From: Kofleriaceae bacterium
GTDB lineage: Bacteria; Myxococcota_A; Polyangia; Haliangiales; Haliangiaceae
NCBI GenBank assembly: GCA_965215005.1
Contig: CBDCCZ010000023.1
Location: 64,001-128,000 of the forward strand
Reading direction: 5' to 3'
DNA length: 64,000 nucleotides
Shown one piece after another: positions 277 to 22,783 of the stretch. Position numbers and translations under genes: made by a program. Every line of letters begins with the position of its first letter. Positions within the stretch are counted from its first letter, which is position 1. The notes under the pieces are model-generated. The model was given only the letters and a program-made list of their open reading frames with translations, had not been told where the DNA came from and made no database searches.

Positions 277-1503
<1,227 letters not shown>

Positions 1504-1673: not shown

Positions 1674-2336
1674 CTAAACATGTGCCGGCGGCGAGGTGGC
1701 GCAGCGCTGGCAGACGTTGCCATCGCACGCAAGGCAGATGAAGCTTTCGCAACTCACGCACGGCAGCTGACAATCTCCACAGATGGAGTGACCGCTGGCG
1801 CAGCGCTCGAGCGCCACACTGCTCGCCGCGCAGTTGGCGCAGAGAGCGGCGACGGGCATCTGGGATGCATCCTCCAAGTCGACGAAGAACGGCTGCCGAT
1901 CGGTGGGAACTCGCATCGGGTGCTCGGCGACCCATTGCGCTGCCCGGCCGTTGAGCGGGCTCTTGAGATTGTAGCTCTGCAGCGCCAGCATCTCGCCCAC
2001 CCTTTGAATCAAGTTGTCGAGCGACTCGCTGGCAGTCCAGTGGTCGCCTATGCACACCGCGTGCGGCGCGATGTTCGGGTGGAAGACCGGCGTGAGCATG
2101 CGAAATACCGGGGCATCGCGCGGATATCCATGGCCAAGCACGACCTCCACCCGATGGTCGATGGCCTCCACGATCTGCCCGACAATTTCGCGCAGGGACG
2201 CCACTCGCAAGAGCAGCCGATACCGCTCCGGCGGATTGCCCTGCACGCCCTCGATGTCGATGCGCGGGTGCCGGGTGACCAGGCGTCGGACGGCTTCGTA
2301 ATCTGACTGTAGGCGCAACAAGCGGGCTCGGCTCAT
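1674..2336 (-). CDS. Ubiquitin-conjugating enzyme E2 (UBC-like) with C-terminal Cys-rich RING-like Zn finger
   Basis: RLQSDY...YPRDAP...TPVFHPNIAPHAVCIGDHW...PLNGRAAQW (UBC signature, HPN plus catalytic Cys); start MSRARL overlaps the upstream stop (ATGA). Confidence 0.9.
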   Translation of the reverse strand: MSRARLLRLQSDYEAVRRLVTRHPRIDIEGVQGNPPERYRLLLRVASLREIVGQIVEAIDHRVEVVLGHGYPRDAPVFRMLTPVFHPNIAPHAVCIGDHWTASESLDNLIQRVGEMLALQSYNLKSPLNGRAAQWVAEHPMRVPTDRQPFFVDLEDASQMPVAALCANCAASSVALERCASGHSICGDCQLPCVSCESFICLACDGNVCQRCATSPPAHV

Positions 2337-3592
2337 GGGTGAGGGACTCCGTTCGGGTTGAGCGCCGGCGCAACGAGGAGCTCCGGCAGCGCGTCTCGTT
2401 CGATGGCATCGACGAGCAGCTCCATGGTTGCGGCGGGTAGACTGATCCCCTTGGGGCCGTTCTCGAAGCGCGTCCACGTATTGAGACCGACCAGCTCGCC
2501 GTGCTCATTGTACAGGCCGCCGCCGCTGTCTCCGGGAATGACCGGCAGGTCGGTGAACAGCAGGCTGCATGCGCCAGCCGGGCTGTCGTAGGTTTTCTGG
2601 TGCAGAAGCAGCCCATGATGGACGAGCCAGCCATTGCGGTACGGGTTGGGTAGGAAATACAACCGCTCGCCCGGGGCCACGGCGTCGGCGGCGCGAGCCA
2701 CCACGACCGCTGCCGGCGGATCCTCGATGCCTACCTCGAGGAGCGCGAGGTCGAGCGGTGGTGGTGCCAACCAACGGACGTGGGCGGGGGCGTGGCGACC
2801 GTCGGCGAGCTGCAGCCAGACCGGCGCGATATCGGCCGGTTCCTTGGGCGAGGACACCGCAGCGCGCGGATCGACCACGTGACGATTGGTCACCACCCAG
2901 GCCCGCCGGTCCTCGGCGGCGACGACCACACCCATGCCCAGCGCCGAGTCGCGCGCATCGCCATCGACGGCGCCGGCGACGATCACCACGGTTGCATCCA
3001 CGACAGGTGCCTCCGCGGCCCACAATCCATGGCCGTAGGACCGCGCTGGCATGTCCAAATAGCGCAACGTGGAGCTGTTCGCGCCGAGCATGCCGAAGAC
3101 GCCAAGCAGCACGGCGGCGGCGCCGATCACCGACGCTGTGAGATACGCTGCCCGACGCGGGAGCCGAGCCATGCCCCGCCCGCGATGCAAGTAGAGCAGC
3201 AGCCCACCCAAGAGCAGCGCCGCGATGCCCGCGAGAAGCGCTCGCACCGCGCGCTGCTCCGCATGCGCCAGTAGCGACTCGAGCGGACCGAGCTCGAGCG
3301 GCTCTCGCATCGCCAACATCGCCAGCACGGCCAGCGCCGCGACCGTCGCCGCCGCCAGTGGCGCCAGCCAACCAGCGACGCGATGTGGCCAACGGCAGGT
3401 CTCGAGCTTGCGCCGTGCCCGCGCGGCGGCCTCGAGCGCGGCGGCATCGATGACCAATGGCTCATCGCTCCACGTCTGCCAGGCGGCCGCGGAGCGGCAC
3501 GCCGCACACGATTCCCCCGCGACCAGCCGCACCACCGATCGGACGCCGCAGGAGGGGCACCGATCGATGCGGGCCGGGGACGCTGCGCCCAC
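2333..3592 (-). CDS. Membrane-anchored trypsin-like (S1) serine protease with N-terminal Zn ribbon and ~3 TM helices
   Basis: VVTNRHVV (His), LDLALL (Asp), PGDSGGG (Ser); CPSC...CAAC; hydrophobic segments; GTG start inferred. Confidence 0.85.
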   Translation of the reverse strand: MGAASPARIDRCPSCGVRSVVRLVAGESCAACRSAAAWQTWSDEPLVIDAAALEAAARARRKLETCRWPHRVAGWLAPLAAATVAALAVLAMLAMREPLELGPLESLLAHAEQRAVRALLAGIAALLLGGLLLYLHRGRGMARLPRRAAYLTASVIGAAAVLLGVFGMLGANSSTLRYLDMPARSYGHGLWAAEAPVVDATVVIVAGAVDGDARDSALGMGVVVAAEDRRAWVVTNRHVVDPRAAVSSPKEPADIAPVWLQLADGRHAPAHVRWLAPPPLDLALLEVGIEDPPAAVVVARAADAVAPGERLYFLPNPYRNGWLVHHGLLLHQKTYDSPAGACSLLFTDLPVIPGDSGGGLYNEHGELVGLNTWTRFENGPKGISLPAATMELLVDAIERDALPELLVAPALNPNGVPHP

Positions 3593-3593
3593 C

Positions 3594-4130
3594 TCAGAGC
3601 CCCAGCGCCAACAGCAAGCCGACCAATGCGTAGACGCCGCCGATGGTGGCGCTGCCATAGCCGATGGCCAGGTAGGTGCCGTTCTCGCCCTCTAAGAGGC
3701 GGCGTTTGAGGTACGCATACACCCCAGCGATGGTGCCGGACAGCGGCGCGACCACCCCGGCGAGACTGATCACGAACAGCACCGTGAGCCAGCGCTTGGC
3801 CTTGGCGATGGCGCTCTGCTCGGCGAGCCAGCCGCGATATTCGGATTCGGTCATCGGGTCGGCGTATGGGAATCGCGCTCCGCAGGTGCACAACAGCAAG
3901 CTTGCGGCGATCTCGTCATCGCAGCGGGGACACTGTTTGCTATCGCCCCAGCCGAGCGAGACGCTGGTCGGCGGCGTCGGCTTCTCGGCCACCGCCGCGT
4001 GCTCACATCCGTAGGTTCCGCAGCCGCCGATGTCCTCCCAACAGCGCTGGTGATACACCTGCGTGCACGAATCGCACTGAGTGTCGGCTTCGCCTTCGGC
4101 GATCTTCGTGTAACAAATCGCGCAGCGCAT
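3594..4130 (-). CDS. Prokaryotic RING-like (E3-like) protein with Zn ribbon and C-terminal TM helices
   Basis: CAIC-x13-CDSC-x4-HQRCW-x5-C-x4-C pattern (Prok-RING type); CPRC...CTCG ribbon; hydrophobic C-terminus. Confidence 0.8.
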   Translation of the reverse strand: MRCAICYTKIAEGEADTQCDSCTQVYHQRCWEDIGGCGTYGCEHAAVAEKPTPPTSVSLGWGDSKQCPRCDDEIAASLLLCTCGARFPYADPMTESEYRGWLAEQSAIAKAKRWLTVLFVISLAGVVAPLSGTIAGVYAYLKRRLLEGENGTYLAIGYGSATIGGVYALVGLLLALGL

Positions 4131-4157
4131 GATCGATTGCCTTTCTCGTTGCACAAG

Positions 4158-4574
4158 CTACGGGGTGGCGCTGCCGGCCAGGAGCGAACGCGCCAGCCCT
4201 AGGAACACGACGGCGACCGCAATCGCCTGCATCCACCAGCGCACCGCAGGTCGATCCGCTAGCGCCGGCGCGCGGCGCGCCAGTGCCATGAAGGCGGTGA
4301 GCGCAAAGATTCCCATCGCCAAGAACAACATCGGTCCTGCCGGATGCCAGATGAACGCGGCACCGATGTCACCATGCGCTAGCGCCACGAAGCTGCGGGT
4401 GAGACCGCAGGTAGGGCAAGGCACGCTCAACCACTGGCGCAGCCAGCACGCGGGACCCATGGCAGCGCCGTTAGGCGCGGCCACCTCGGCTCCCACGGGC
4501 ACCAGCAGCCGCGCCGCGATCAACGTCAGCGCGAAGCCGTTCGCCAGCACCAGGTCGAGCGCGTGGTCTTTCAC
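4158..4574 (-). CDS. DUF2752-family membrane protein
   Basis: CWLRQWLSVPCPTCGLTRSF...GDIGAAF..HP motif; GTGA overlap with upstream gene. Confidence 0.85.
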   Translation of the reverse strand: MKDHALDLVLANGFALTLIAARLLVPVGAEVAAPNGAAMGPACWLRQWLSVPCPTCGLTRSFVALAHGDIGAAFIWHPAGPMLFLAMGIFALTAFMALARRAPALADRPAVRWWMQAIAVAVVFLGLARSLLAGSATP

Positions 4575-5149
4575 ACGCCTGTTAATCGCAGTACCAACGC
4601 GACTCCCCATAACACCAGCGCGATGATTCCGATGATCTGACCGGCGGTGGCGTAGCCCTCACCTTTGAGCTCGGGATTGGCGGCGATGAGCTCTTTGGCC
4701 TCCTTGCCCTTCACGAATGCGACGATGCCGAGGATCATGCCGCAGACGAACAGCCCGGCGATGCCGAAGATCAATGAGCTGACGGCCCCTGGAGCGTTCT
4801 TCGGCTGAGAACCGGAAAGTCCATCGGGGCGGTCCAAGCGATAACAGCGCGCACACGCGGGGTCATCCGCGGGCGTCTGGCCGCCGCAGTGCCGGCAGAA
4901 GCGATTCCCGGGTGTCAACTGCGCCTCCGCTGCCGCCGCGCTCACCTCCGGCGCGAGCTGGCGAAGCGGCGCGTTTTGGCAACTCACGGTCGCGCAGCCC
5001 TGCTTCTCGTCCCAGCACGTGGCGTGCGCCGGCGACTCGCAGGACGTACAGACTGCGCAGTCGACACCGAGGGACAGAGGCGACTGGCACCAGCCGCACG
5101 GTTGCCCATGCAATTTCACGTTCGCTCGCAATCGTCGACTCGATTCCAT
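4571..5149 (-). CDS. Prokaryotic RING-like domain + Zn ribbon + DUF4190 TM domain protein
   Basis: CGWC...CTSCESPAHATCW...C....C; CRHC...CARC; AVSSLIFGI...KGEGYATAGQIIG (DUF4190); AGGGAG RBS before ATG 5149 (alternative GTG 5170). Confidence 0.8.
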   Translation of the reverse strand: MESSRRLRANVKLHGQPCGWCQSPLSLGVDCAVCTSCESPAHATCWDEKQGCATVSCQNAPLRQLAPEVSAAAAEAQLTPGNRFCRHCGGQTPADDPACARCYRLDRPDGLSGSQPKNAPGAVSSLIFGIAGLFVCGMILGIVAFVKGKEAKELIAANPELKGEGYATAGQIIGIIALVLWGVALVLRLTGV

Positions 5150-5244
5150 CTCGATCTCCCTTGTATCCACCTGGTTGCGCTGCGCGATGACTGGCCATCA
5201 GTGGCCCCCAACGGGCGCAACCGCGCAGTCAACCGGCCGCCTTA

Positions 5245-6606
5245 CTAGCGGTCGTGGCTTTGTCGCTCCTCGAACTCGAGCACTGTGCCGCCGAGTACGA
5301 GCTGATCCCCGGAGGTGAGCCGGGCGCGCCGCACCTGCCGGCCGGCGATGCGCGTGCCGGCGCGGCTGCCGTCATCTTCGAGCTCGTAGGCGTTGCCGAC
5401 TCGATGGATGATGGCGTGGCGGCCGTCGATCTCAGCATCCTTAAACAGATAGATGTCGGCGTCCGGAGAGCTGCCGATGACGGTGGGCGTCTTGTAGAGC
5501 ACGAACGACTTGCCGGCGAGCGGGCCGGTGCGCACGCGCAGCCAAGCTTCGCGCGAGAGGCGCTCGACCAGCGCCACGAACAAGCCGACCATGAGCCCAA
5601 CGGCGAGCAAGCCGATCAGGCGAGAGAGGCCCGCGTCCGCGAACGCCGACTGCGGGATGAAGCGGTCGATCGGATCAAAGAACATGCCTCCGACCGCACC
5701 GCCCATTGCGCCGCCGACCACCGAATTGCGCAGCTGCTTTTTGGTGGTCCTGGCGATGTTCATGCCCAAGCCGAGCGCCGCCCCAATCACCGCCCACGCG
5801 GCGCTGCGCAGCGCCATCATGCCCAAGAACGCCCATGGCGCCACGGCTTCGGGGTTGACGAAGAAGGCGTCTTCGGGCGTGCCGGCTAGGGCCAGCGGAT
5901 CGAAGAACTGGAAGATGACGCCGGCTGGGACCATACCGGCAAACGACAGCACCAGCGCCAAGAACGAACCAACGATGGTACGGGACACCATGCGCGACCA
6001 ATTCCGGGTCGACAGGCCCTCGGCCAAGAGCAGGAAGAACGCTACAGCGACACCAGTGAGCGGGAACAAGAGCATCAGCGGCCAATCGAGCTCGCTCTGC
6101 TGGTGATCGCGGACGCCGTTCGCGTAGCCTGGCGACACCGGCCGCAGCGCCGTGGCCACCATGCTCGCTCCGGCGCCTTCGCTCGTGTAGCCGACCGCCT
6201 CGATGGTGACGCCGGTGTCGAGCTCCTCGAAGGAGAGCGCCGCCTCGTCCTCGGGTCCCGGCAACAGCTCGGTCACGCCCTCGACAATGATCACCTCGGT
6301 GGTGTTGACGGTGAGGGAGATCGCGTCGCCTTCGGTGAGGAACGGGTCGCCGTTGAACAGCGAGATCTGCCCGGCGACCCGGGCGTAGTCGTCGATCTTC
6401 GGCTCGAGGAATGCGTAGACGAGCAGCGCCCCGAGCAGCGCCGCCAGCGGCAGATAAAAGAGGCTGTTGTTCCAGAGGCGCCGCAGGGGCGAGATCGGCT
6501 GCTGCGGCGGCGCTGCGCGACCCTGCAGCGCACGGCTCCGCGCCAGCGCTTCATCCACCCCTTTGCTGAACAGCTCGTCGCGGCCGATATCGATTCGCTC
6601 GCTCAT
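5245..6606 (-). CDS. Polytopic membrane protein with C-terminal FHA domain
   Basis: Multiple TM segments; AWLRVRTGPLAGKSFVL...IGSSPDADIYL...RHAII...LTSGDQLVLG FHA fold pattern; GAGG RBS. Confidence 0.85.
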   Translation of the reverse strand: MSERIDIGRDELFSKGVDEALARSRALQGRAAPPQQPISPLRRLWNNSLFYLPLAALLGALLVYAFLEPKIDDYARVAGQISLFNGDPFLTEGDAISLTVNTTEVIIVEGVTELLPGPEDEAALSFEELDTGVTIEAVGYTSEGAGASMVATALRPVSPGYANGVRDHQQSELDWPLMLLFPLTGVAVAFFLLLAEGLSTRNWSRMVSRTIVGSFLALVLSFAGMVPAGVIFQFFDPLALAGTPEDAFFVNPEAVAPWAFLGMMALRSAAWAVIGAALGLGMNIARTTKKQLRNSVVGGAMGGAVGGMFFDPIDRFIPQSAFADAGLSRLIGLLAVGLMVGLFVALVERLSREAWLRVRTGPLAGKSFVLYKTPTVIGSSPDADIYLFKDAEIDGRHAIIHRVGNAYELEDDGSRAGTRIAGRQVRRARLTSGDQLVLGGTVLEFEERQSHDR

Positions 6607-6608
6607 GG

Positions 6609-7853
6609 CTACCGTACCTCGCTGCGAGGGGATGGTTTGGCGATAGCGCCGGCACCCGTCGCTGCCGCCCCGGCCTCGCGATAGCGAGCGGCGTTGCCGG
6701 GATCGATCTTCGTCGCAACTGCCAGCAGCCGTCGCGCTCGCGCCGAATCGCCGGCAGCGACCGCTTCCCGCGCATTCTCCAAGTAGAGGTTGCCAAGGGC
6801 GGTGCGATACAGCGCCATCTCCTGCTCGAGCTGCCGCTCACCGCGGCTCTTACGCGACGCTGCACGTTCGAGCTCGCGCAGGAAAACGCTGGCGCTCGCA
6901 TATTGCTTGCGTGTGCGATCGAGGGCGTCGCGCGCGGCGGCCAGACGCTCACGCGGCAGCGCGTCCTCGGCATCTTCATTGAGCGCGGTCTCGGCGGACG
7001 CGAGCAGCGCCGCCGCTTCACCCAGTTGGCGATCGAGCGCCTCTTTGTCCATGGTGGCTCGCCAGACTCGCAACAGCTCGTTTTCCAGCTCGCCGATGGC
7101 GTCGGCGGCGCTGCTGATGGCGGCGCGATCGGCTGTCGGCGGCCCCTCGAGCGGAGCGCGCCGCAGGACCCAAAACCACAGCACGGCGCCGCACACGCTG
7201 AGAATCGCGGCAAACGCGGCGATCCCGAGCCAATCGGCACCGCGCGGCGGAGCCTCGGCGGGCGCGGCAGCATTTGGGCTGCGCTCGGCGACGTCAGAGA
7301 TCGGGGCGGAGACGCTGCGGTCGCCATCCCAACTGTGCGGATGGCCATCTACCCAATACAGCCGCGCCCGCCGCAGCTCGCCCCGCTGCCAGGTGAACGT
7401 GCCATGATCCTTGCTGCGCGGGTCATAGACGAAGGCGATTTGAAACGGGAGATTAAAGAAGCTCTGGTGGATGAACTGATCGCGGTCGGATAGGAACACG
7501 CCAAACCCGGGATGCGTGTGCCACCAGCCGACCACCGTTTTGTTCTTGTGCTTATCGTCGAGCTCTCGATTGATGTGATCCCACGTTTTGTGGGTAAAGG
7601 TTAGCTCGGCGGCCTTCTCGTCAGCGTGCAGCGCGTCAATGGAGGCATCGATGTGAATGTAAGGGCCGGCGTCGTCTCGGCGCACTTCGCCGACCAACAC
7701 GCCGCCGACCTCGCGGTCGAGCTCAGCATTGCCGCGGGCAATGATTTGGTCGAAGACCGCCTCGTCGATGAAGATGCGGAAGTCCATGCGCCCCGCTGGT
7801 GCGGGCCGATGGCGCAGCGTCGTGGTTTCGATCGCTCGGGCATCAAGCTGCAT
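6609..7853 (-). CDS. JAB/MPN (JAMM) metallo-isopeptidase with TM helix, coiled coil and TPR-like C-terminus
   Basis: EVGGVLVG...VVGWWHTHPGFGVFLSDRD (E...HxH...S..D); TM WLGIAAFAAILSVCGAVLWFWVL; GGAGG RBS before ATG 7853. Confidence 0.9.
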   Translation of the reverse strand: MQLDARAIETTTLRHRPAPAGRMDFRIFIDEAVFDQIIARGNAELDREVGGVLVGEVRRDDAGPYIHIDASIDALHADEKAAELTFTHKTWDHINRELDDKHKNKTVVGWWHTHPGFGVFLSDRDQFIHQSFFNLPFQIAFVYDPRSKDHGTFTWQRGELRRARLYWVDGHPHSWDGDRSVSAPISDVAERSPNAAAPAEAPPRGADWLGIAAFAAILSVCGAVLWFWVLRRAPLEGPPTADRAAISSAADAIGELENELLRVWRATMDKEALDRQLGEAAALLASAETALNEDAEDALPRERLAAARDALDRTRKQYASASVFLRELERAASRKSRGERQLEQEMALYRTALGNLYLENAREAVAAGDSARARRLLAVATKIDPGNAARYREAGAAATGAGAIAKPSPRSEVR

Positions 7854-9081
7854 GGGGCACCTCCGCATCGAGCCATCTCCGCCAGCCGGCGTCGGCATCC
7901 ATCAGGGCGGCTTCGGCGTCGCCCGCCAGGAGCCAGTGCTCCTCGGCCTCGAGACCGCGGCGTGCGACGACGATGTCGAAGGGCGGCACACCGATATCAG
8001 CGAGCGTTCGCTGTGGGTCGAGCTGGCTGACGCGCGATAGCGAGCTCGTGAAGTCGACGACGCAGTGGACGCCGCAGTGGTGGCAGCGAGCATCTGCCTC
8101 GGTGAGAGTCCCGAGGGCGGCACCGCAGGCGCGTTGCCACGAGCAGGCCGGACAACGCATCGAGGTAGCCACATCCCGCGACAGCTCGATGACGGCGCCA
8201 TCGCCAAGGCGGGATTGAGCCCGGTCCAGGAGCTGCGCGATGGTGGTTTGCGCGGCACCCAGCTCGACCCGCGTCGGCCCTGGCAGCACCTCGTGGGCCG
8301 GACAGCTGGGCTTGCGGGGGTAGCGAACGCGGTTCACCTGCGCCAATAGGCCATCGACATGCAGTCCTTCGCCAATCAAGACTGGCTGCCCGTGCAGGTG
8401 TTTGATGGCTTCCTGCACTTGCAGGGCGCCGATGATGGAGGCGGCCACGGCGCTGGTTGGCGCGTGACCGCGCGCGGCCGCGTTGCGAGCCAGCATCGCG
8501 CACGAGCGCCGCTCAGCCAGGATCTGTCGATCCACCGCGTTCATCGTGCACTCGTAGCAGGCCGAGTTGCCGGGATCGAAGGCGCGAACGACGCCGGCGA
8601 AGCCTTCGATGGCGCCGTCAATCCACACGCGGCCCAGACGCGCCGCCACGGCGTTGATGAAGACCCGAGCCTCGCGATTATCGACCGCGCCGATGATGAC
8701 GTCGGCCCAGGCCAGCACTCCCAAGCCAGCGCTCAATACGTTGTCGGCGCGGGCACTCACCTGTACCGACGGATTGAGCTCACGCATCCGCTGCGCTGCG
8801 ACTTCGGCTTTGTAGCGACCCTCGTCGCCGTCGCGGAACAACACGCTGCGCGATAAGTTGGAGCGTTCAATGCGATCGCCATCGAAGACGAGGACGTGAC
8901 CAACGCCGACCAGCGCGAGCAGCTTGAGCACCTCGTTGCCGATGGCACCAGCGCCGACGACGACGACGCGGGCGCGGCCTACCCGCTCCTGCTCCCACCA
9001 CGAAATCAACGTCTGCCGGTGATAGCGCTCGTCGACCTCCTGGCCGTCGATGGCGCTCGCCGCGGCCCCTTCAGTAGACAC
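7843..9081 (-). CDS. Ubiquitin-activating E1-like (ThiF-family) enzyme with C-terminal Zn ribbon
   Basis: RYHRQ, VVGAGAIGNE, DRIERSNLSR, DNREAR, CYEC...RRSC (putative catalytic Cys), CPAH, CPAC...CHHC. Confidence 0.9.
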   Translation of the reverse strand: MSTEGAAASAIDGQEVDERYHRQTLISWWEQERVGRARVVVVGAGAIGNEVLKLLALVGVGHVLVFDGDRIERSNLSRSVLFRDGDEGRYKAEVAAQRMRELNPSVQVSARADNVLSAGLGVLAWADVIIGAVDNREARVFINAVAARLGRVWIDGAIEGFAGVVRAFDPGNSACYECTMNAVDRQILAERRSCAMLARNAAARGHAPTSAVAASIIGALQVQEAIKHLHGQPVLIGEGLHVDGLLAQVNRVRYPRKPSCPAHEVLPGPTRVELGAAQTTIAQLLDRAQSRLGDGAVIELSRDVATSMRCPACSWQRACGAALGTLTEADARCHHCGVHCVVDFTSSLSRVSQLDPQRTLADIGVPPFDIVVARRGLEAEEHWLLAGDAEAALMDADAGWRRWLDAEVPHAA

Positions 9082-9346
9082 CGGCAGTTATCTCCGGCTG
9101 AATTCGCACGACGTCGCCGTCCACCACCTCCTGGGCCAGGAGCGTGGCCTCGTCAAGGAGCTGCATACCCAGGCGCCGATGGTGCAGCTTATAGCTCATG
9201 AGCTGGCCATCCGGTGCGTGCTTTGGCAATTGCAGCTTGTCCGCCAGCACATAGAGGATGCGCTCGACCTCGACGTCATCAGGAACTCTCACCGTGACCT
9301 TCTTGTTACCGGTGATGTCCCACACCATGAGATCCAAATCCGCCAC
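9071..9346 (-). CDS. Ubiquitin-like (beta-grasp, EsaB/YukD-like) protein
   Basis: 91 aa; ...TLLAQEVVDGDVVRIQPEITAGVY resembles the Ub 'TL..v.dgd.l.l' C-terminal pattern; GGGAGG RBS; first gene of the E1/JAB/E2 operon. Confidence 0.85.
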   Translation of the reverse strand: MADLDLMVWDITGNKKVTVRVPDDVEVERILYVLADKLQLPKHAPDGQLMSYKLHHRRLGMQLLDEATLLAQEVVDGDVVRIQPEITAGVY

Positions 9347-9370
9347 GCGTCCTCCCTCGCTCGGTTCGGC

Positions 9371-9392
9371 GCCTCACCCGTAGAGGTGAGGC
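9371..9392. promoter_or_regulatory. 8-bp inverted repeat just upstream of the Ubl RBS
   Basis: GCCTCACC-cgtaga-GGTGAGGC. Confidence 0.35.
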
Positions 9393-9883
9393 CCGTGTTT
9401 CTATCGCGATGATTCACAACTCTCTACGGAAAAGGTTGGCAAACCGCAGGCAGCATCCACCGTTGCCGCTACTGGTGCAGAACGTGTTCTAAGCAAACCA
9501 GCATGCGTATCGGCGCAGGTGCCGACGCGGTTTCCCACTATCGTCATAGTTGTTCACGGCGGAAGCCGTGACGCCCGGAACAGCAACATAACGAAGCCAA
9601 GGCACGCGTAACGCCGCCGAACGTTGCCGTCGTGTTCATCTCCGGCGCGCGCGCTTCGGCGACCGTCGACATGGAGTGGTTCACGAGAGGGGGCACTCAA
9701 GCCGGTGGCGCGACGGTTGCGACGCCGCTCAACCCAGCGACAGACCGTGCCACGTTCAAGTTGCCGTACGACCTTCAGGCGCGCTGTTCCGGCTGTTTCG
9801 AGTTGCGATGTTGGCGCCCTTCGGTCGGACTTCTCGCGGCCCGGCGGTTCGCGGTCCGGATGGGAGACGGTCGCGATGAAACC

Positions 9884-9899
9884 TGACATGAGGGTGTCA
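9884..9899. promoter_or_regulatory. Putative WYL-regulator operator upstream of GST
   Basis: TGACA-N6-TGTCA palindrome; the 10-mer AAACCTGACA recurs upstream of the WYL gene (11252-11261). Confidence 0.5.
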
Positions 9900-9972
9900 A
9901 AACGCGATGCGATGGTCGGTCTTGGCGCGACGGTGCGCCATCAAAACCATCAGACTTCAAGGAGAATTCGCG

Positions 9973-10590
9973 ATGAGTCTCACGTTCTATTACGCTCCCA
10001 TGTCCACCGCCTCAACCGTGCACTGGAGCCTCGAGGAGCTCGGCCTGCACTACGAAGCGGTTCGCGTCGACATCCAGAGCGACGCGGACAAAAAGCAGAA
10101 GCTCGGGCCGGTGAACCCAAACCTCAAGGTGCCGGTGTTGGTGCATGACGGGGTCGCTATTTTCGAGTCGGCTGCGATCCAGATCTATTTGGGCGAGACC
10201 TTTGGCGTGGACAAAGCTCTCTTCCCGGCGCCTGGGCCAAAGCGAGGCCAAGCACTCGGATGGCTGGTCTGGGCCAACGTAACGCTTGGCGAGGCGGTGG
10301 GCCGGTGGTTGCGCCACACGGGCGACACCGTCGATGCCGCCCTGCAGAACGCGCGCGCCGGCGAGGAAGCGCGCGGCGAGCTCGATCAGCTCGTGGCATT
10401 GCTCGAGGAGCAGCTCGGTGCCGATTACCTGCTCGGAAGCGGCCCGTCCCTGGTGGACTTCCACCTGGTTTCCTTCTGTCGGTGGATGGGGTACTGCGGC
10501 ATCGACGTCGCCGCATTCCCCAAGGTGCGGGCATGGATCGAGCGCTGCTCGGCGCGGCCCGCGAATCAGAAGCTCATGACGGCGGCTTAA
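9973..10590 (+). CDS. Glutathione S-transferase family protein
   Basis: VNPNLKVPVL, FESAAI, YLLG..PSLVD, FPKVRAWIERCSARP; AGGAG RBS. Confidence 0.93.
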   Translation: MSLTFYYAPMSTASTVHWSLEELGLHYEAVRVDIQSDADKKQKLGPVNPNLKVPVLVHDGVAIFESAAIQIYLGETFGVDKALFPAPGPKRGQALGWLVWANVTLGEAVGRWLRHTGDTVDAALQNARAGEEARGELDQLVALLEEQLGADYLLGSGPSLVDFHLVSFCRWMGYCGIDVAAFPKVRAWIERCSARPANQKLMTAA

Positions 10591-11404: not shown

Positions 11405-11582
11405 ATGCCGAAAGCAGGCAAGTACTTGCGCATCCTGCACCTAGCCGCGTCCACGATGGAGACCGATGTCGAGGCTGCGCTCATGGTGTTGCTCAAGGTC
11501 GACGAGGCGATCAGCAGCGACGCCGTCAAAGCACTCGTTGCGACCGTGACACCGCCATCGGTTCCGCAGATGGCGCCGCTCG
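11405..11582 (+). mobile_element. Probable IS21-family transposase (IstA) C-terminal remnant
   Basis: YLRILHLAASTMETDVEAALMVLL...AVKALV...PPSVP resembles IstA C-termini as I recall them; ends where the pmbA duplicate begins. Confidence 0.5.
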
Positions 11583-11924
11583 GGCGCGAGTGACCTCGGG
11601 ATCGAATACGATCGGCATCTCGCTGGTCGGCACTCTTCGCGAGCCGAGCGTGGCAACCGTGCGCCGCGCCGCCTCTCTGCCCACCGACTCGGGAGCGTCG
11701 AGCGCTTCGAGGATGCGCCCGGTCGTCCACCAGTACCCATTGCGCTTCTTGCCGCCTTCGTCATCGCAGAGCGGCTCCACATATAACGAGCAGTAACTGC
11801 CGCGATACCCAACGACGAAGCCGGCGGTGTTGACGAAGGCGACGCTGCCGAGATTGCGTGAGAACGTGGCGCCTTCGGAGTTGCTGACCCTGGGATCGGA
11901 GGCGAACGCGGCCTTTTCGCCCGC
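11583..11924 (-). pseudogene. Internal pmbA/tldE fragment, direct copy of 15430-15771
   Basis: ~342-bp near-identical match (AGEKAAF...PIVFDPEV) with no start or stop context. Confidence 0.92.
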
Positions 11925-12127
11925 GCTGACGACCTTCAATCGGGCTCGCTGATGACCTTCAGTCGGGCTGATTGTTTGTGCGGACGATCCTCCGGCTTCG
12001 CACCAACGCCACAATAAATCTGTTGGTCGTTCGATCGATAGGCGTGCTGACGACCTTCGGTCGGGCTGTTCCGGGCTGTCTCGGTCTCGGCTGTCTCGCG
12101 CCGCCTGACGATCTTGGGGTCGGGCTG
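11925..12127. repeat. Four degenerate ~23-bp repeats GCTGACGACCTTCRGTCGGGCTG
   Basis: Copies at 11925-11947, 11948-11970, 12046-12068 and ~12104-12127; internal CGACC-ttc-GGTCG hairpin. Confidence 0.7.
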
Positions 12128-12214
12128 TTTGATTCGGGCTATTCGGCTGTTTCGCTTGGTGCGCCGCGGCGCCGCGACCGCCCGAAGGCAGCCGCGGCAC
12201 GCGGAACTTCTAAT

Positions 12215-14814: not shown

Positions 14815-16176
14815 TCAGCTGCCGGCGATGGTCATGCGCGAGACGCGGAACGTCGGCGCAGCCGTGGAGCTGCGAAGCACCAGGTCATCGGCCACGGCGT
14901 CGATGCGGCCGAGCAAGTCGTCGAAGTTGGCCGAGATCGTCACCTCGCTCACGGGATAGCTGAGCTTGCCGTTTTCGATCCAGAAGCCCTGCGCACCACG
15001 CGAGAAATCGCCAGTGACCGGATTGAAGCCAAATCCCATCAGCGACGTGACGTAGAGCCCCTCGCCGGTGTCCGCAAGCAACGCCTCGCGCGTCATCGAG
15101 CCCTTTTCCATGATGAGGTTCGACGTGGTCGGGCTGGGATTGCCGCCGACTCCACGACCCGCGGAGCCGGTGGACTGGCGGCCGAGCTTGCGCGCGCTGT
15201 AGACGTCGCACATGACCGTCTCGAGGATGCCATTGGACACGATGGGATTGCGCCGCGTCGGCAATCCGTCGCCGTCGAACGGCCGCGAACCTGGGCCGCG
15301 CGGAATCAACGGGTCGTCGATGATGGTGACCAAATCAGACGCGATGGAAGTGCCTTCGCGGTCGACGAGATAGCTCGAGCGGCGATAGAACGACGCACCA
15401 TTGGCGACAGAGAAGATCATTCCAACGATGGCACGAGCGACCTCGGGATCGAAGACGATCGGCATCTCGCTGGTCGGCACTTTTCGCGAGCCGAGCGTTG
15501 CAACCGTGCGCCGCGCCGCCTCTCTGCCTACCGACTCGGGATCGTCGAGCGCTTCGAGAAATCGCCCGGCCGTCCACCAGTACCCATTGCGCTTCTTGCC
15601 GCCTTCGTCATCGCAGAGCGGCTCGACATATAACGAGCAGTAACTGCCGCGATACCCACCGACGAAGCCGGCGGTGTTGGCGAATGCGACGCTGCCAAGA
15701 TTGCGTGAGAACGTGGCGCCTTCGGAGTTGCTGACCCTCGGATCGAAAGCGAACGCGGCCTTTTCGCCCGCAATCGCGCGCCGCAGCCCCTCGGCGGCAT
15801 CCAGCGTCTGCACGCGCTCGTCGTAAAGATCAAGCTCGGGAAGCGTAGAAGCCATTTCGCTGGCGTCGGGAAGATGATTGAGCTCGTCGGGCTCCGACAG
15901 CGCCGCGAGCTTGACGCTCTCGCCGATAAACGCCTCGAGAGGCTCAGCGCGCATATCGGAGGTGTAGGTGACGGCGCGCCGCTGGTCCTTGAAGATTCGC
16001 AGACCCAGCGCGCGGCTTCCCGCCTCCTGAACCAGCTCGGGCTCGCCCATACGCACCTTGGCAGTGAGCTCGGTGCCATCACGCAGGAGCACCTCTGCGT
16101 CGTCGGCACCGGCGCGCCTAGCCATCTCGCAGGCACGTTGCGCGAGTCCGCTCAGCTCTTTGACGATGTCGCTCAT
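14815..16176 (-). CDS. pmbA: TldE/PmbA metalloprotease subunit
   Basis: SRPFDGDG, NPVTGDFSRGAQGFWIENG, PVSEVTIS; coupled to tldD. Confidence 0.93.
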   Translation of the reverse strand: MSDIVKELSGLAQRACEMARRAGADDAEVLLRDGTELTAKVRMGEPELVQEAGSRALGLRIFKDQRRAVTYTSDMRAEPLEAFIGESVKLAALSEPDELNHLPDASEMASTLPELDLYDERVQTLDAAEGLRRAIAGEKAAFAFDPRVSNSEGATFSRNLGSVAFANTAGFVGGYRGSYCSLYVEPLCDDEGGKKRNGYWWTAGRFLEALDDPESVGREAARRTVATLGSRKVPTSEMPIVFDPEVARAIVGMIFSVANGASFYRRSSYLVDREGTSIASDLVTIIDDPLIPRGPGSRPFDGDGLPTRRNPIVSNGILETVMCDVYSARKLGRQSTGSAGRGVGGNPSPTTSNLIMEKGSMTREALLADTGEGLYVTSLMGFGFNPVTGDFSRGAQGFWIENGKLSYPVSEVTISANFDDLLGRIDAVADDLVLRSSTAAPTFRVSRMTIAGS

Positions 16177-17624
16177 GCTCGCTCCGTTCCGCCGACGGTG
16201 ATGCTCGAGATCTTTACCGTGGGCGTCCCAACGCCGACCGGCACCGACTGACCATCCTTGCCGCACGTCCAGATGCCGTCGGAAAGCTCATAGTCGGAGC
16301 CGAGCATCGTCACCCTGCGAAGCACCTCAGGACCGTTGCCGATCAAATTGACTCCCTTGAGCGGCGCGGTGAGCTTGCCATTCTCAATCAAGTAGCTCTC
16401 CGTTAGTGAGAAAACAAAATCTCCATTGGAGATGTTCACCTGGCCACCGGAGAACCGCTTGGCGAAGATCCCGCGCTCGACCGAGCGAATGATCTCTTCG
16501 GGGTCATGACTTCCCGGCCGCAAGCTGGTGTTGGTCATGCGCGGCATCGGCATCGAGCGAAATGACTGTCTGCGGCCATTGCCAGAGGCCTTGACGCCGA
16601 AGTGCCGCGACGACAACCGGTCGTGCATATAACCGACCAGCTTGCCGCCTTCGATGAGAACGTTCTCCCGGCCGGGATTGCCTTCATCATCAACGTTGAT
16701 GGAGCCACGCGAGTGCGAGAGAGTCCCATCGTCGACGACCGTGCACAGCTCAGAGGCAACCATCTGCCCGAGCTGATCGCTGTAGTTCGAGGTCTTCTTG
16801 CGATTGAAGTCGGCTTCGAGACCATGCCCCACCGCCTCGTGCAGCAAAATCCCCGAGTCGCCCGCGCCTAACACCACCGGCAGCTCGCCGGCCGGTGCTT
16901 CGCGGGCATCGAGCATGGCAACCGCGATGCGCACCGCTTCGCGTCCGTGCGACTCGGCGTCCCGCTTATCCGCTTCAAAGTACTCGAGACCGTAGCGCCC
17001 GCCGCCGCCGCTAGAGCCGGACTGACGCTTGCCGCCCTCTTCCGCCACAGCACGCACACCAAACCGAATGAGCGGCAGGCGATCGCGCACCAAGCTACCA
17101 TCAGAGGTAACCACGAGCGTCTCGCGCAGCTGCTCGCCAAACGAGGCTTCTACCTTGACCACCCGTGAGTCGGCGGCGCGGGCGGCGCGATCGGCGGCGC
17201 GCAGCAACGCAAGCTTCTGCTCGGGCGGCACCGCGATGGATACGTTGCCCACCGGATAGAAGTCCGGCACTCGAATCGGGTGAATCTCGACCGGCTGCAC
17301 CGAGCCGCCGCCGAGCGCGATCTGCCCCGCCGTGCGCGCGGCGTGGGCCATGCGATCGAAGGCCAGATCTTCGGCGTAGGCATAGCCAGTGGCATCGCCT
17401 TTGATGACGCGGACACCGAGGCCCATGGTGATGCCGCGGCCGACGGTCTTGATCTGTTCCTCTTCCAAGACGTAGTCGGCGCTGATGCGATATTCGAAGA
17501 ACAGGTCGGCGTAGTCGCCGCCGCGCTCGAGGGCGATCGAGAGCAAACGCTGCGCGATCGCAGCGTCCACTTCGGTTTCGCCTCCTGGCGCAAACGGCGC
17601 CAGATGGTCTGCGTTCGGGTTCAT
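16173..17624 (-). CDS. tldD: TldD metalloprotease
   Basis: LLHEAVGHGLEAD, GNGRRQS..PMPRMTNT, CGKDGQSVPVGVGTP. Confidence 0.95.
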   Translation of the reverse strand: MNPNADHLAPFAPGGETEVDAAIAQRLLSIALERGGDYADLFFEYRISADYVLEEEQIKTVGRGITMGLGVRVIKGDATGYAYAEDLAFDRMAHAARTAGQIALGGGSVQPVEIHPIRVPDFYPVGNVSIAVPPEQKLALLRAADRAARAADSRVVKVEASFGEQLRETLVVTSDGSLVRDRLPLIRFGVRAVAEEGGKRQSGSSGGGGRYGLEYFEADKRDAESHGREAVRIAVAMLDAREAPAGELPVVLGAGDSGILLHEAVGHGLEADFNRKKTSNYSDQLGQMVASELCTVVDDGTLSHSRGSINVDDEGNPGRENVLIEGGKLVGYMHDRLSSRHFGVKASGNGRRQSFRSMPMPRMTNTSLRPGSHDPEEIIRSVERGIFAKRFSGGQVNISNGDFVFSLTESYLIENGKLTAPLKGVNLIGNGPEVLRRVTMLGSDYELSDGIWTCGKDGQSVPVGVGTPTVKISSITVGGTERA

Positions 17625-17921
17625 TGGGTTACCGTACCTTCCCCTATCAGAACGTCCACCGACGCGGCGCCGAACGTGCAAAGACGTTGGCGAACGGATC
17701 GGTGCAAGCGATGCGCACCGCGATGGTGACGAGTACCGAGAGCCGACGTCATGCTACTCGCTGCTGCTGACGTCCAGCTCACGGATTCGCGTGCAGTGGC
17801 CACGAGCCCACCACGGTACACCGCCGCGCCAAGCCGGTCGAGGCGCTGAATGCCTGCGCGACTCGATGCGGGCCCCACGGCCGAGGTGCACGCGAGAGGT
17901 GCGACGCTGTGTGCGCCGCGC

Positions 17922-19535: not shown

Positions 19536-20455
19536 ACTTCCGCGGGCGTCTCTGGCGGCCCCGCGTCCTCATCGTCGGTGTTGTCGTCTTCGGTGCTGCC
19601 GCTGGGCAGCTCATCGCTATTCGCGTTCGCAGAGCTCTCGCGCAGCCCCGCGTCGCTGGCGGCATCGGCCAAACGCGCCGCGGAAACCGGTGCTTCCTCG
19701 TCGTCCTCATCCGCGCTTGCTGTCGGCTCGGCGCGATTCTTCAGATCGGAGAGATCCATGCCGGCCTTCTTTACCTCACGCAGGCTCTCTTCGGTAAGCT
19801 CGTGATACTCACGCAGCGTCGGCAGATCGCGCAGCTCCGACAAGTTGAAGAACTCGAGGAAGTCGCGGGTGGTGCCGTAGAGCAATGGTCGTCCCGGCTC
19901 TTCCTTCTTGCCGAGCACGCGAATAAGGCTGCGGTCGAGCAGCACCCGCAGTGTCCCGCCCGAGTCGACGCCGCGAATTTCGTCAATCTCCGGGCGAGTG
20001 ATTGGCTGCCGGTACGCGATGATCGCCAGCGTCTCGAGCTGCGCCCGCGACAGCCGCACCGGCTTGCCGGCTACGAGCTGCTGCACGCAGCTTGCGCAAC
20101 TCGGGTGCGTGCGCAGCTGATAGCCGCCGGCAACGTCGTGCAACACGATTCCTCGGCTCGCGTAATGAGACTCAAGCGATTCGATCGCCGCCCGCACCTG
20201 CTCGAGGTCGGGCTGTCCTGTGAGCTGAGCGATGCGCTTGATGGGCAGCGGCTTCTCCGAGGCAAACACCAGGCTCTCGACCAACATCTCGAGGCGCTTG
20301 CCTTCCGGCACGCCCGCCTCCTCCGACTCGCTGTCGTCGACCTGAGCGTCCTCCACTCCTGCCGAAAGCTCACGCTCCTCTTGATCGCCCGGAGTCTCCG
20401 CCTTCGACGCTTCGCGCTCCTGGGCGGCGCTGCTGCCGCGCCCCTTGCGACTCAT
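19532..20455 (-). CDS. scpB: SMC-Scp complex subunit ScpB
   Basis: [44 protein letters not shown]. Confidence 0.95.
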
Positions 20456-21291
20456 CGATAGTCGTCCTTGCTTGCCACCACGCCGGCGACACGCGCGCGC
20501 ACCTCGCTGGTGGCGCGCGCGATGAGGATTTCGTCATCGCCGTCGACTTGCGTGATCGTGATGAGGCGCAGCTTGGCCATCTCGAGAATGGCCAAGAACG
20601 TCACCACCGCCTCGTGACGAATTTCCTCGAGCGAAACCTCGGCACCTTCCTCGAGAAACGAAAACAGCGACAAGAACTCGAAGCTGCGCTCACGCTCGAG
20701 CCGGTCAGCCAGCTCGCTGATGCGCTCCGCGACCGACAGCCGGTCGACCACCACGTTGTGGGCGAGCTTGACCTTGGCCCGCCGCAGCGCCCGATCGAGG
20801 GCCTCTACGAGCTTGATGATCGGAACCTCGGCGAGCGGCGCCAACGTGTCGGCGTCGACATTCTCGCTCAGCGCTTCTTCCTGCGGAGTCCCTCGCGGCC
20901 AGACGTTGCGACCAACCACCGGTCGGTGGCCTAAATGCGTTGCCGCCTCTTTGTACTTCTGATACTCGAGCAAGCGCCGAATCAAATCGGCTCGCGGGTC
21001 GAGGTCATCGTCGCTGTCGAGCTCGTCGGGCTCCACCAAACTGGGATCCGGCGGCAGCAGCTGGCGCGACTTGATGTGCGCCAGGGTCGCCGCCATCAAC
21101 AAGTACTCGCCGGCGACGTCTAGATTGAGCGAGCTCATCAGGTCGAGGTACTCGAGGTACTTCTCGGTGATGAAGGAGATCGGGATGTCGAGAATCTCGA
21201 GCTCGTGCTTCTTGACCAAGTGGAGGAGCAGATCGAGCGGCCCCTCGAAGACATCGAGCTCGACCTCGAGTCCGGCGCTGCGTGTGTTCAT
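20452..21291 (-). CDS. scpA: Segregation/condensation protein ScpA
   Basis: [39 protein letters not shown]; start MNTRS overlaps upstream stop. Confidence 0.93.
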
Positions 21292-21962
21292 CGGAGCCCG
21301 AGCAGGCCGAAGAGAGTCTTGCCGAGAAACACCGCCGGCTCGATGAAGATGCGGCTGAGCCCGGGGATGAAGATGACCGCCATCAACACGAACGGCCCAT
21401 ACACCGCCAGCTTTTCGTATGTCGGCAGATATCGGTTGGGCAACATTCCGGCGAGCACGGTGCCGCCATCGAGCGGCGGCGCCGGAATGAAGTTGAAGAA
21501 CATCAAGATGAAGTTGAGCAGCACCGCATAGCGCAGCGCCTCGTTGAGGGCGTGGGTCGGCTCGAGGATGCCCGTCCTTATAAGGATCAGGTTGACCACC
21601 GCGATGACCACACCAAAGAGCAGGTTCATCAGCGGCCCGGCCGCGGCCACCAACATGTGCAGCGTTCGCATCGACCAGTTCTTGAAGCGAAACTGCACCG
21701 GCTGCACCTGCACCGGCCGGCCCCAACCAAATCCAAAGCCCGCGCCGCCGGTGAACGCCAGGCCGACCAGCGGAAACACCAAGGTGCCGATGGGGTCCGC
21801 GTGCGCGAGCGGATTGAGAGTGACGCGCCCCTGGCTCGCGGGCAGCCGATCGCCAAACTTGTGGGCAATGATCGCGTGGCCAAACTCGTGAACGGCGATC
21901 GAGAGGATGAGGATGATCATCCCCTGGACGATCAGCCGCATCTCCAGGGCGGACAGTTCCAT
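21288..21962 (-). CDS. Site-2 protease (M50 family)
   Basis: [24 protein letters not shown]. Confidence 0.93.
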
Positions 21963-22042
21963 AGGTCGGCAACACTATGGCGGGCGTATGACAGCCCTGC
22001 AAGCCCCTTATCCGGGGATCTACCCGCGCCAACACTTCGGAA

Positions 22043-22739: not shown

Positions 22740-22783
22740 TTCAGTAAATAGATTTGCCCTCGCACCGCCGGACCGGAGTTCTC

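Follow-up and report, generated by a model that had tools for sequence, protein, structure and literature searches.

We analyzed a stretch of 64,000 nt from a Kofleriaceae bacterium (hereafter, the window), which contains between positions 1674 and 9346 nine genes that together resemble a eukaryote-like system of ubiquitin-like (Ubl) protein conjugation. The map of open reading frames (ORFs) and the Pfam matches show that these genes are closely packed and all oriented on the minus strand in the order Ubl, activating enzyme (E1), JAB peptidase, FHA membrane protein, RING1, DUF2752, RING2, protease and conjugating enzyme (E2). An earlier reading of this DNA, made from the sequence only, had described a co-oriented block of nine such genes, and all nine were recovered in this interval. 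It had also reported overlapping start and stop codons. Indeed, the Ubl and E1 genes have 11 nt in common, the GTG start of E1 lying inside the last codons of Ubl, and the ATG at position 2336, which is the true start of E2, overlaps the stop codon of the protease gene as ATGA. The intergenic distance is reduced to 2–3 nt at the JAB/FHA and DUF2752/RING2 junctions. The completeness of the Ubl/E1/E2/RING/JAB set, also claimed from the sequence, is borne out by the Pfam assignments and by catalytic motifs that are intact and conserved. The operon is complete, well conserved and real.

Six of the nine products had been proposed to be anchored in the membrane. Based on Kyte-Doolittle hydropathy, we detected membrane-length hydrophobic segments in exactly those six: one in the JAB peptidase, about six in the FHA protein, two in RING1, three in DUF2752, two in RING2 and three in the protease. 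The same scan identified no segment of this length in Ubl or E2, and the hydrophobic stretches that it flagged in E1 correspond to Rossmann strands.

The Ubl gene (9071–9346) begins with a GTG codon preceded by a GGAGG ribosome-binding site and encodes a 91-residue beta-grasp protein of the YukD family (Pfam YukD; 2.5e-8; 35 bits relative to a cut-off of 27). Its predicted mature C-terminus reads ...PEITAG and ends on Gly89, after which a two-residue tail (VY) remains. The motif ...(I/L)QPEI(T/I)AG was present in all 50 orthologs that we found: 10 of these proteins stop exactly at the Gly of the motif, and the 40 others bear unconserved tails of 1–44 residues. Identity between Ubl sequences ranges from 53% to 78% across phyla. 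In an alignment of 26 rows, A88 and G89 are invariant while K15 and K53 are nearly so. When compared with solved structures, the Ubl profile yielded weak ubiquitin matches only (0.011). Such a pattern, in which Ala-Gly never varies and the residues beyond it are not conserved, marks a modifier with a C-terminal Gly that is exposed by processing and then activated. As expected from this pattern, the Ubl is predicted to be a processed and conjugatable modifier.

The E1 gene (7843–9081) encodes 412 residues with a ThiF/Uba adenylation domain at positions 26–262 (Pfam ThiF; 1.8e-51) and a C-terminal region of 150 residues containing a CxxC...CxxC zinc ribbon. For this C-terminal region, Pfam returned only weak zinc-ribbon matches and no other family at E-values up to 10. 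Among solved structures, the protein is closest to the active adenylation domains of UBA7 and UBA1 from eukaryotes (8.9e-27 to 1e-23), with ThiF coming next (2.1e-23). At least 90% of 46 sequences conserve the residues G43-A-G-A-x-G48, D67, R78, K91 and D134-N135-R136, as well as a set of Cys and His residues composed of C175xxC178, C194, C260, H263, C310xxC313 and C333xxC336. E1 presents the family match, the nucleotide-binding glycine motif and the Mg/ATP-binding Asp of a ThiF-fold adenylation enzyme. Its CxxC segment aligns to the CxxC of UBA3; the alignment ends before the Cys, and C194 is located 16 residues past C178, presumably matching the position of the crossover-loop catalytic Cys of UBA3. 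Cys194 is, by its position, a candidate catalytic Cys.

The JAB/MPN+ peptidase is encoded at 6609–7853, in an ORF that extends to 7898 and offers candidate starts at 7853, 7868 and 7898 (Pfam JAB, 2e-10, above its cut-off; Prok-JAB, 8.1e-8). The protein begins with an Rpn11-like domain, followed by one transmembrane helix and then by about 180 residues that form a helical tail. The metal site E...HxH-x7-S-xx-D is complete, and its residues E48, H112, H114, S122 and D125 (counted from the start at 7853) are found in at least 90% of 45 sequences. The best solved relative is an Rpn11-like protein (6fjv; 9.1e-8), which we take to be a protein of Caldiarchaeum subterraneum, and Rpn11 itself follows. 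Exactly one transmembrane helix was predicted in each of the 45 sequences. The tail would be located in the periplasm, because the catalytic domain must meet a Ubl that is cytoplasmic.

The E2 gene (1674–2336, within the ORF 1674–2477) encodes 220 residues and matches Pfam UQ_con (1.1e-7; 32 bits relative to a cut-off of 27). Its ubiquitin-conjugating (UBC) core carries H86-P87-N88 and the catalytic C95; these residues do not vary among 14 sequences and are aligned with HPN and Cys in UBE2C. A profile built from 14 homologs matched UBE2C (2.1e-9) and a total of 90 E2 sequences at 0.01 or less when searched against solved structures. An AlphaFold2 model was obtained with a pLDDT of 81.7, and every Foldseek match among those listed was an E2 enzyme with a probability of 1.00. 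The target-normalised TM-score to E2 enzymes was 0.5–0.67 with a root-mean-square deviation (rmsd) of about 5 Å, and the model is hence approximate. The E2 had been expected to match and fold as a UBC enzyme: its UQ_con score is above the cut-off and its model folds as UBC. Finally, a predicted complex between the E2 core (residues 1–155) and RING2 (residues 1–100) scored 0.21 relative to a mark of 0.32, in a comparison run without controls from which we draw no conclusion.

The C-terminal 55 residues of E2 form a module of 12 conserved Cys/His ligands (C166...C212). When searched alone against solved structures, this tail gave weak matches to GATA fingers (6.8e-4 overall; 1.3 and 6.6 for single stretches), a hint that its first half may be a treble-clef zinc finger with weak GATA-type resemblance. 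The module is encoded once in the window (1674–1841, minus strand). In most homologs (including P0023, P0025 and P0042) it is present as a tandem duplicate separated by a variable Pro/Ala-rich spacer.

The two RING genes encode paralogues that share the same layout. RING1 (4571–5170) likely starts at the ATG at 5149, which is preceded by GGGAG, and matches Prok-RING_1 (7.6e-7; 29.4 bits relative to a cut-off of 29.1) and DUF4190 (1.3e-10). It is composed of a C4HC3 RING-like finger (C25...C64), a zinc ribbon (C92xxC95...C106xxC109) and a two-helix membrane anchor corresponding to DUF4190, and its ligands are invariant in 15 sequences. Against solved structures, the RING1 profile matched the EL5 RING (0.01) and the L32 zinc ribbon (2.8e-4). 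RING2 (3594–4154; 186 residues) presents the finger C11xxC14-x12-C27xxC30-x4-H35xxC38W-x5-C45-x4-C50 followed by a zinc ribbon (C75PxC78...C89xC91) and two hydrophobic helices. Its C4HC3 ligands are conserved in 26 sequences, and its best solved match is the plant EL5 RING-H2 (7.7e-4), followed by Arkadia (0.012) and RNF165. The previous description of both products as RING-like zinc proteins agrees with the conserved C4HC3 ligands; in Pfam, RING1 barely exceeds the Prok-RING_1 cut-off and RING2 does not reach it (1.4e-5; 25.3 bits).

Between the two RING genes lies a gene for a 150-residue DUF2752 membrane protein (4158–4610; Pfam DUF2752; 1.2e-14). At least 90% of 47 sequences share its motif C55...C65-P-x-C68-G...R72-S73-F74. 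Our search found no literature on this family.

The protease gene (2333–3658, with an alternative GTG start at 3592) encodes a membrane serine protease (Pfam Trypsin_2; 4.4e-19) with an N-terminal four-Cys zinc ribbon, three transmembrane helices and a trypsin/HtrA-like domain. Of 66 sequences, 90% or more retain C34, C37, C51, C54, H260, D303 and S378. Three transmembrane helices were predicted in 54 of these sequences, two in 8 and four in 4, by a crude method. We counted on average 3.23 Lys and Arg residues ahead of the first helix, 1.39 in the loop between helices 1 and 2, 3.32 in the loop between helices 2 and 3, and 1.32 after the third helix (n = 31). This pattern fits an N-in/C-out orientation, in which the protease domain is predicted to lie in the periplasm, and the extracytoplasmic protease proposed by the sequence-only reading is consistent with these charges. 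Relative to HtrA and DegS, the enzyme possesses the triad of the trypsin fold, but no PDZ domain was matched with Pfam and its NCBIfam scores for DegP, DegS and HtrA are far below those of an equivalog (33–47 bits relative to cut-offs of 357–720). In some Planctomycetota (L045, L059, L063 and L084), the best match of RING1 falls inside the protease ORF, which suggests that the N-terminus of the protease is RING-like in these species rather than a plain four-Cys ribbon.

The FHA gene (5245–6606) encodes a six-helix membrane protein of 453 residues (Pfam FHA, 4.6e-12; Yop-YscD_cpl, 8.6e-12). Its AlphaFold2 model (pLDDT 85.6; pTM 0.80) presents six long helices, a beta-rich loop domain at residues 75–156 between helices 1 and 2, and a C-terminal FHA fold at residues 352–448. 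As modeled, this last domain is certain to have the FHA fold: it superimposes on GarA with a Z-score of 19.2 and an rmsd of 1.2 Å over 97 residues (Foldseek, 1.4e-8). When the whole model was used, both fold searches were filled by matches to the FHA domain. For the membrane part, the ESM Atlas yielded only FHA-annotated clusters (0.79 and 0.77), under our lead threshold. Nothing usable was found in the Pfam scan at E-values up to 10 for this membrane part, for the tail of the JAB peptidase or for the tail of E2. The six helices separate a conserved short N-terminus from the FHA domain, so that both ends are on the same side of the membrane; presumably, these ends are cytoplasmic and the loop domain is outside. 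The loop domain is absent from many of the FHA orthologs of Planctomycetota and Riflebacteria.

The FHA domain has diverged from GarA at the positions that contact the phosphate. In the alignment of the two proteins, GR is replaced by GS, SRRHA by DGRHA and SLNGT by SRAGT; we take the canonical contacts of FHA domains to be the Arg of GR, the Ser of SxxH and the Asn of NG. None of the 22 orthologs in the alignment has Arg at the Arg position (at least 90% of them have Ser), the Ser position is occupied by Pro, Gly or Ala, the Asn position is variable, and the His alone is kept from the phosphate-contact region. Without the canonical contacts to phospho-Thr, this domain is probably a phospho-independent docking module, rather than a reader of kinase activity, as judged from the alignments. 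The loss of these contacts in all 22 orthologs weakens an interpretation of the operon in terms of kinase signaling. The presence of a YukD-family Ubl beside an FHA domain that is blind to phosphate suggests, by analogy, that the FHA domain may bind the Ubl.

We further analyzed the distribution of this operon across genomes. The E2 family comprises 1629 related protein clusters at E-values of 0.001 or less, whose sources include Kofleriaceae, Haliangium, Planctomycetota and Acidobacteriota. When scanning one genome for each of 185,579 species, we obtained 411 matched stretches, 323 of which encode a relative of E2. The best 80 loci were surveyed using the nine proteins of the window as tblastn queries (1e-4; same strand as E2), and gene counts were based on the 50 loci of other genomes with at least 7.5 kb of sequence upstream of E2. 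In this upstream region we detected Ubl, E1 and JAB in 47 loci each, the protease in 46, RING2 and FHA in 45 each, RING1 in 37 and DUF2752 in 30. The order across loci is Ubl-E1-JAB-FHA-RING(s)-[DUF2752]-RING-protease-E2, and it is the same in Myxococcota, Acidobacteriota, Planctomycetota, Riflebacteria and others. Finding the same genes in the same order in dozens of genomes of several phyla is far beyond chance.

Some variation was observed around this conserved order. The operons of Planctomycetota and Riflebacteria usually carry DUF2752 and an additional RING downstream of E2. In Planctomycetia, the gap between FHA and RING holds a DUF2752 gene that was missed by tblastn, together with an expanded set of several double-zinc-ribbon membrane paralogues without RING (for example L072, 5035–7685; L074–L076; L081). 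Because these genes in the gap were missed, the counts of RING1 and DUF2752 are lower bounds. No flanking gene was conserved across the 80 loci, which indicates that the block is self-contained. The commonest neighbor is a Ser/Thr protein kinase, mostly downstream of the operon, but it is not a fixed member: it was found in 10 loci (L017, L019, L024, L030, L033, L035, L036, L039, L076 and L084). Ser/Thr protein kinases are common in the phyla that carry the operon. We considered a link between the operon and these kinases and dropped it, given that their ORFs flank the operon in 10 loci only and that the FHA domain is without phosphate contacts.

At a shorter evolutionary scale, E2 is patchy. 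Among 40 relatives of the window genome, it was found in 2 of the 24 genomes of the same family and in none of the 16 more distant ones. We built a tree of 81 E2 cores with FastTree, in which the window sequence falls in a well-supported clade of 34 rows composed of Myxococcota (18), Acidobacteriota (10), Planctomycetota (2), Pseudomonadota (1) and rows without a group (3). Its nearest row is a metagenome-assembled genome titled Haliangium sp. (72% identity). Across the tree, phylum labels change 11 times, relative to a mean of 30 when labels are shuffled. The distribution and the tree suggest that the system is old within phyla and patchy, and that the operon has probably moved between phyla on occasion.

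The operon is separated from a divergent glutathione S-transferase (GST) gene (9907–10590, plus strand) by a leader or promoter region of 560 nt (9347–9906). About 25 nt upstream of the Ubl start, this leader contains a GC-rich hairpin of 8 bp (9371–9392; 6 GC pairs; 6-nt loop), which could act as a regulatory stem or as a terminator for the divergent side. No sigma-70-like promoter was found at the operon when scanning the window sequence for this consensus, and terminator-like sites were at chance level (5, relative to a mean of 4.7 in shuffled sequences). On the other side, the operon is bounded by a convergent acyl-CoA dehydrogenase gene (277–1503, plus strand). The GST gene is followed by a helix-turn-helix/WYL regulator and, beyond it, by genes for TldD/PmbA, inositol monophosphatase, a pseudouridine synthase, ScpB/ScpA and a Xer-type recombinase. 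These surroundings constitute a housekeeping setting, not a defense island.

Several of these neighboring genes present features of their own. Domain matches identified three PmbA/TldD-related ORFs on the minus strand: a full pair (14815–16266 and 16173–17681) and, a few kb away, an ORF of 224 residues (11526–12200) with the middle domain of PmbA/TldD only, which may be a gene fragment. The ScpA homolog (20452–22605, minus strand) is 717 residues long with its ScpA domain confined to residues 463–695, and its N-terminal extension of about 460 residues matched no family at 1e-5. Adjoining the ScpAB genes, a gene at 22754–23926 (plus strand) encodes a protein of the MRJP family (major royal jelly/yellow; 3.4e-22).

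Operons of this kind are not without precedent. Based on comparative genomics, Burroughs, Iyer and Aravind reportedly predicted in 2011 operons that combine an E1, a classical E2, a Prok-RING_1 protein (often membrane-anchored), a JAB peptidase and a YukD-like Ubl. We assign the window operon to this class, taking Prok-RING_1 to be the Pfam family PF14446. The likeness concerns the YukD Ubl, the ThiF E1 with its C-terminal extension, the HPN E2, the membrane-anchored Prok-RING_1-like proteins and the JAB peptidase. The sequence-only reading had considered the architecture to be uncharacterized. On the experimental side this stands, as we found no experimental study of the RING-containing Ubl operon type in the article texts that we searched. 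However, the operon type had reportedly been predicted in silico already and is therefore not new as a kind. A preprint of 2023 cites this prediction for the rare RING-type ligase (E3) proteins of bacterial operons and, in its passages on the subject, calls the RING-containing operon families uncharacterized (PMC10557695). Likewise, the introduction of Gong et al. names no studied systems beyond type II CBASS, Bil and Bub (PMC11601603).

Compared with systems that have been studied, the window operon combines familiar parts with several additions. The ubiquitin operon of Caldiarchaeum subterraneum and Asgard archaea (Ub, E1, E2, small RING and Rpn11) is reported to have been reconstituted in vitro (PMC5654768, PMC6043591). 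The operon of C. subterraneum contains the same enzyme set, and its tag precursor is described as being processed by an Rpn11-type JAB (PMC5654768). In contrast, its proteins are soluble and its tag is a true ubiquitin with a Gly-Gly end, whereas the window encodes a YukD-family tag ending in Ala-Gly, six membrane products out of nine, and an added FHA scaffold, DUF2752 and predicted periplasmic protease. Bil (BilABCD), type II CBASS Cap2/Cap3 and Bub also possess a bacterial Ubl, E1, E2 and JAB and are reported to carry out real conjugation (PMC11601603, PMC10557695, PMC11601596). As described in these sources, however, they are without RING E3 and without membrane anchoring, their E2s are diverged or fused, and Bub includes a DUF6527 protease. 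We rejected the assignment of the window operon to one of these three systems: PADLOC detected parts of E1 and JAB only, and no DUF6527 match was found with Pfam.

Resemblances of other types were also noted. In type VII secretion systems (T7SS), too, a beta-grasp protein of the YukD family works at the membrane with a membrane protein that carries an FHA domain and with a serine protease anchored in the membrane, the counterparts in T7SSa being the ubiquitin-like domain of EccD and the mycosin protease. They differ in that they are without E1, E2, RING and JAB and in that YukD is reported to be unconjugated, while the window operon is without FtsK-like ATPase and WXG100 substrate. In eukaryotes, Hrd1 and gp78 of endoplasmic-reticulum-associated degradation (ERAD) and the MARCH proteins with their C4HC3 RINGv use a cytosolic RING on a membrane anchor to tag membrane proteins. 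The site-1 proteases DegS and HtrA, for their part, use a membrane-tethered periplasmic trypsin fold to cleave from the other side. The window operon resembles all of these in its working mode; nevertheless, there is no sign of common descent with a particular eukaryotic E3, the operon is without retrotranslocon or AAA unfoldase, and its protease differs from DegS/HtrA by its PDZ-free architecture and its scores far below the cut-offs.

Taken together, our observations make it fairly likely that the operon encodes a membrane-organized machine for the conjugation and deconjugation of Ubl, of the bacterial class defined by E1, E2, RING, JAB and YukD-type Ubl. We infer its biochemical steps, topology, targets and biological role, and the steps follow from the functions of the families. 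The membrane-tethered Rpn11-like JAB would trim the short tail of the Ubl (VY in this case) and expose Gly89, and it would probably also remove the Ubl from its targets. E1 would adenylate Gly89 and then accept the Ubl on Cys194, and the HPN E2 would take it over on Cys95. The two membrane RING/zinc-ribbon proteins would be the E3s: working on the cytoplasmic side of the inner membrane, they would direct the transfer onto lysine residues of proteins in the membrane or close to it, perhaps among them the subunits of the system itself. The six-helix FHA protein would be a scaffold with an FHA domain that binds a partner independently of phosphorylation, the Ubl being a plausible candidate, and the protease, with its zinc ribbon and three transmembrane helices, could link cytoplasmic tagging to periplasmic proteolysis. 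We infer that the biological role may be the control of membrane proteins, envelope signaling or defense.

Several observations weigh against this reconstruction. According to Iyer et al. (2006, PMC1779556), the founding protein YukD does not undergo conjugation, in contrast to the conjugation signature of the window Ubl. The Prok-RING_1 score is under the cut-off for RING2 and just 0.3 bits over it for RING1. PHD fingers have this C4HC3 pattern as well, and RING2 presents weak Pfam matches to PHD, C1 and FANCL; thus, the RING E3 activity is putative. The topology of the RING proteins is uncertain, as the loops connecting their helical hairpins bear basic residues. The flanks of the JAB transmembrane helix show no charge bias (mean Lys and Arg of 1.44 and 1.77; n = 39), and the placement of its tail is therefore tentative. 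Finally, the sporadic distribution of E2 among the relatives of the window genome is equally compatible with a housekeeping system and with an accessory or conflict system.

This last point leads to an alternative in which the conjugation reactions are unchanged but work for defense against phages or for another kind of conflict, as they do in Bil. The trigger would then be an infection or damage to the envelope, and what is tagged would be either a protein of the invader, at the membrane, or a host target whose modification leads to abortive infection. The patchiness of E2 (within the family, 2 of 24 genomes; beyond it, none of 16) is in line with this possibility, and the clade that mixes Myxococcota, Acidobacteriota and Planctomycetota is compatible with transfer between phyla. 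Moreover, the characterized bacterial Ubl systems, type II CBASS as well as Bil, are described as defense systems, and the authors of these studies expect defense for the uncharacterized ones too (PMC10557695, PMC11601603). On the other hand, PADLOC yielded generic partial matches to E1 and JAB and none for the other seven proteins, the operon of the window is flanked by housekeeping genes (acyl-CoA dehydrogenase, GST, TldD/PmbA and ScpA/B), no recurrent defense neighbor was observed in the 80 loci, and the E2 tree is largely coherent within phyla. We consider a conflict role to be unlikely overall.

The chemistry itself could also be read differently. The Ubl might be mainly non-covalent, like YukD in type VIIb secretion, and serve in assembly, binding the FHA domain and stabilizing a membrane complex, with E1, E2, RING and JAB merely regulating or anchoring it. 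Its membership in the YukD family points in this direction, and YukD of B. subtilis is reported to bind the FHA domains of the membrane ATPase YukB without phosphorylation (PMC12637312; PMC1779556) and to be needed for assembly of the complex (PMC12637312). The loss of phospho-Thr contacts is what would be expected of a phospho-independent docking module, and the Ubl and FHA genes occur together in most loci (47 and 45 of 50). Nevertheless, if there were no C-terminal processing and activation, it would be difficult to account for the invariant Ala-Gly with unconserved tails and for the intact catalytic residues of E1, E2 and JAB, and Pfam detected neither an FtsK-type ATPase nor a WXG100 gene in the block; we regard this possibility as improbable. 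It appears even more improbable, to a point where we give it hardly any credit, that Ubl and E1 form a sulfur carrier pair of the ThiS/MoaD type with the other genes as unrelated neighbors. The NCBIfam ThiF and MoeB models do match E1 (7.3e-41 and 4.4e-38), but all equivalog scores are far below their cut-offs (e.g., 139.8 relative to 275), and E1 is nearer to eukaryotic UBA7/UBA1 than to ThiF. In addition, E2, the two RINGs and JAB are fixed neighbors (45–47 of 50 loci), and no rhodanese or sulfurtransferase domain was found with Pfam.

If the operon indeed encodes a membrane-organized conjugation machine, it would extend what has been studied of Ubl conjugation in bacteria. The studied systems (type II CBASS, Bil and Bub) are soluble and without RING E3, whereas this family presents a full eukaryote-style set at the membrane together with a predicted periplasmic protease, and its members span hundreds of species in Myxococcota, Acidobacteriota, Planctomycetota and other groups. 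To the existing prediction our analysis adds the invariant Ala-Gly with variable tails, an FHA fold without phosphate contacts and a protease that loop charges place in the periplasm. Such an operon will not surprise specialists; it constitutes a clean and testable system, of moderate to good interest. More speculatively, and we find this rather unlikely, the operon could be a bacterial counterpart of eukaryotic membrane-protein ubiquitination, in which membrane RING E3s tag membrane proteins on the cytoplasmic side, the FHA scaffold reads the tags as a receptor for the Ubl, and coupling across the membrane leads to cleavage by the periplasmic protease, composing an ERAD-like, Ubl-dependent pathway of degradation or signaling. 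If this were true, the degenerate FHA domain would be a dedicated receptor for a YukD-type Ubl, as the FHA domains of YukB are for YukD, and the operon would represent a lineage from which the logic of membrane RING E3s could have reached early eukaryotes. The targets of the system would show what E3-dependent tagging does in a bacterium, and would also bear on the origin of the eukaryotic E1-E2-RING cascade and of membrane E3 ligases.

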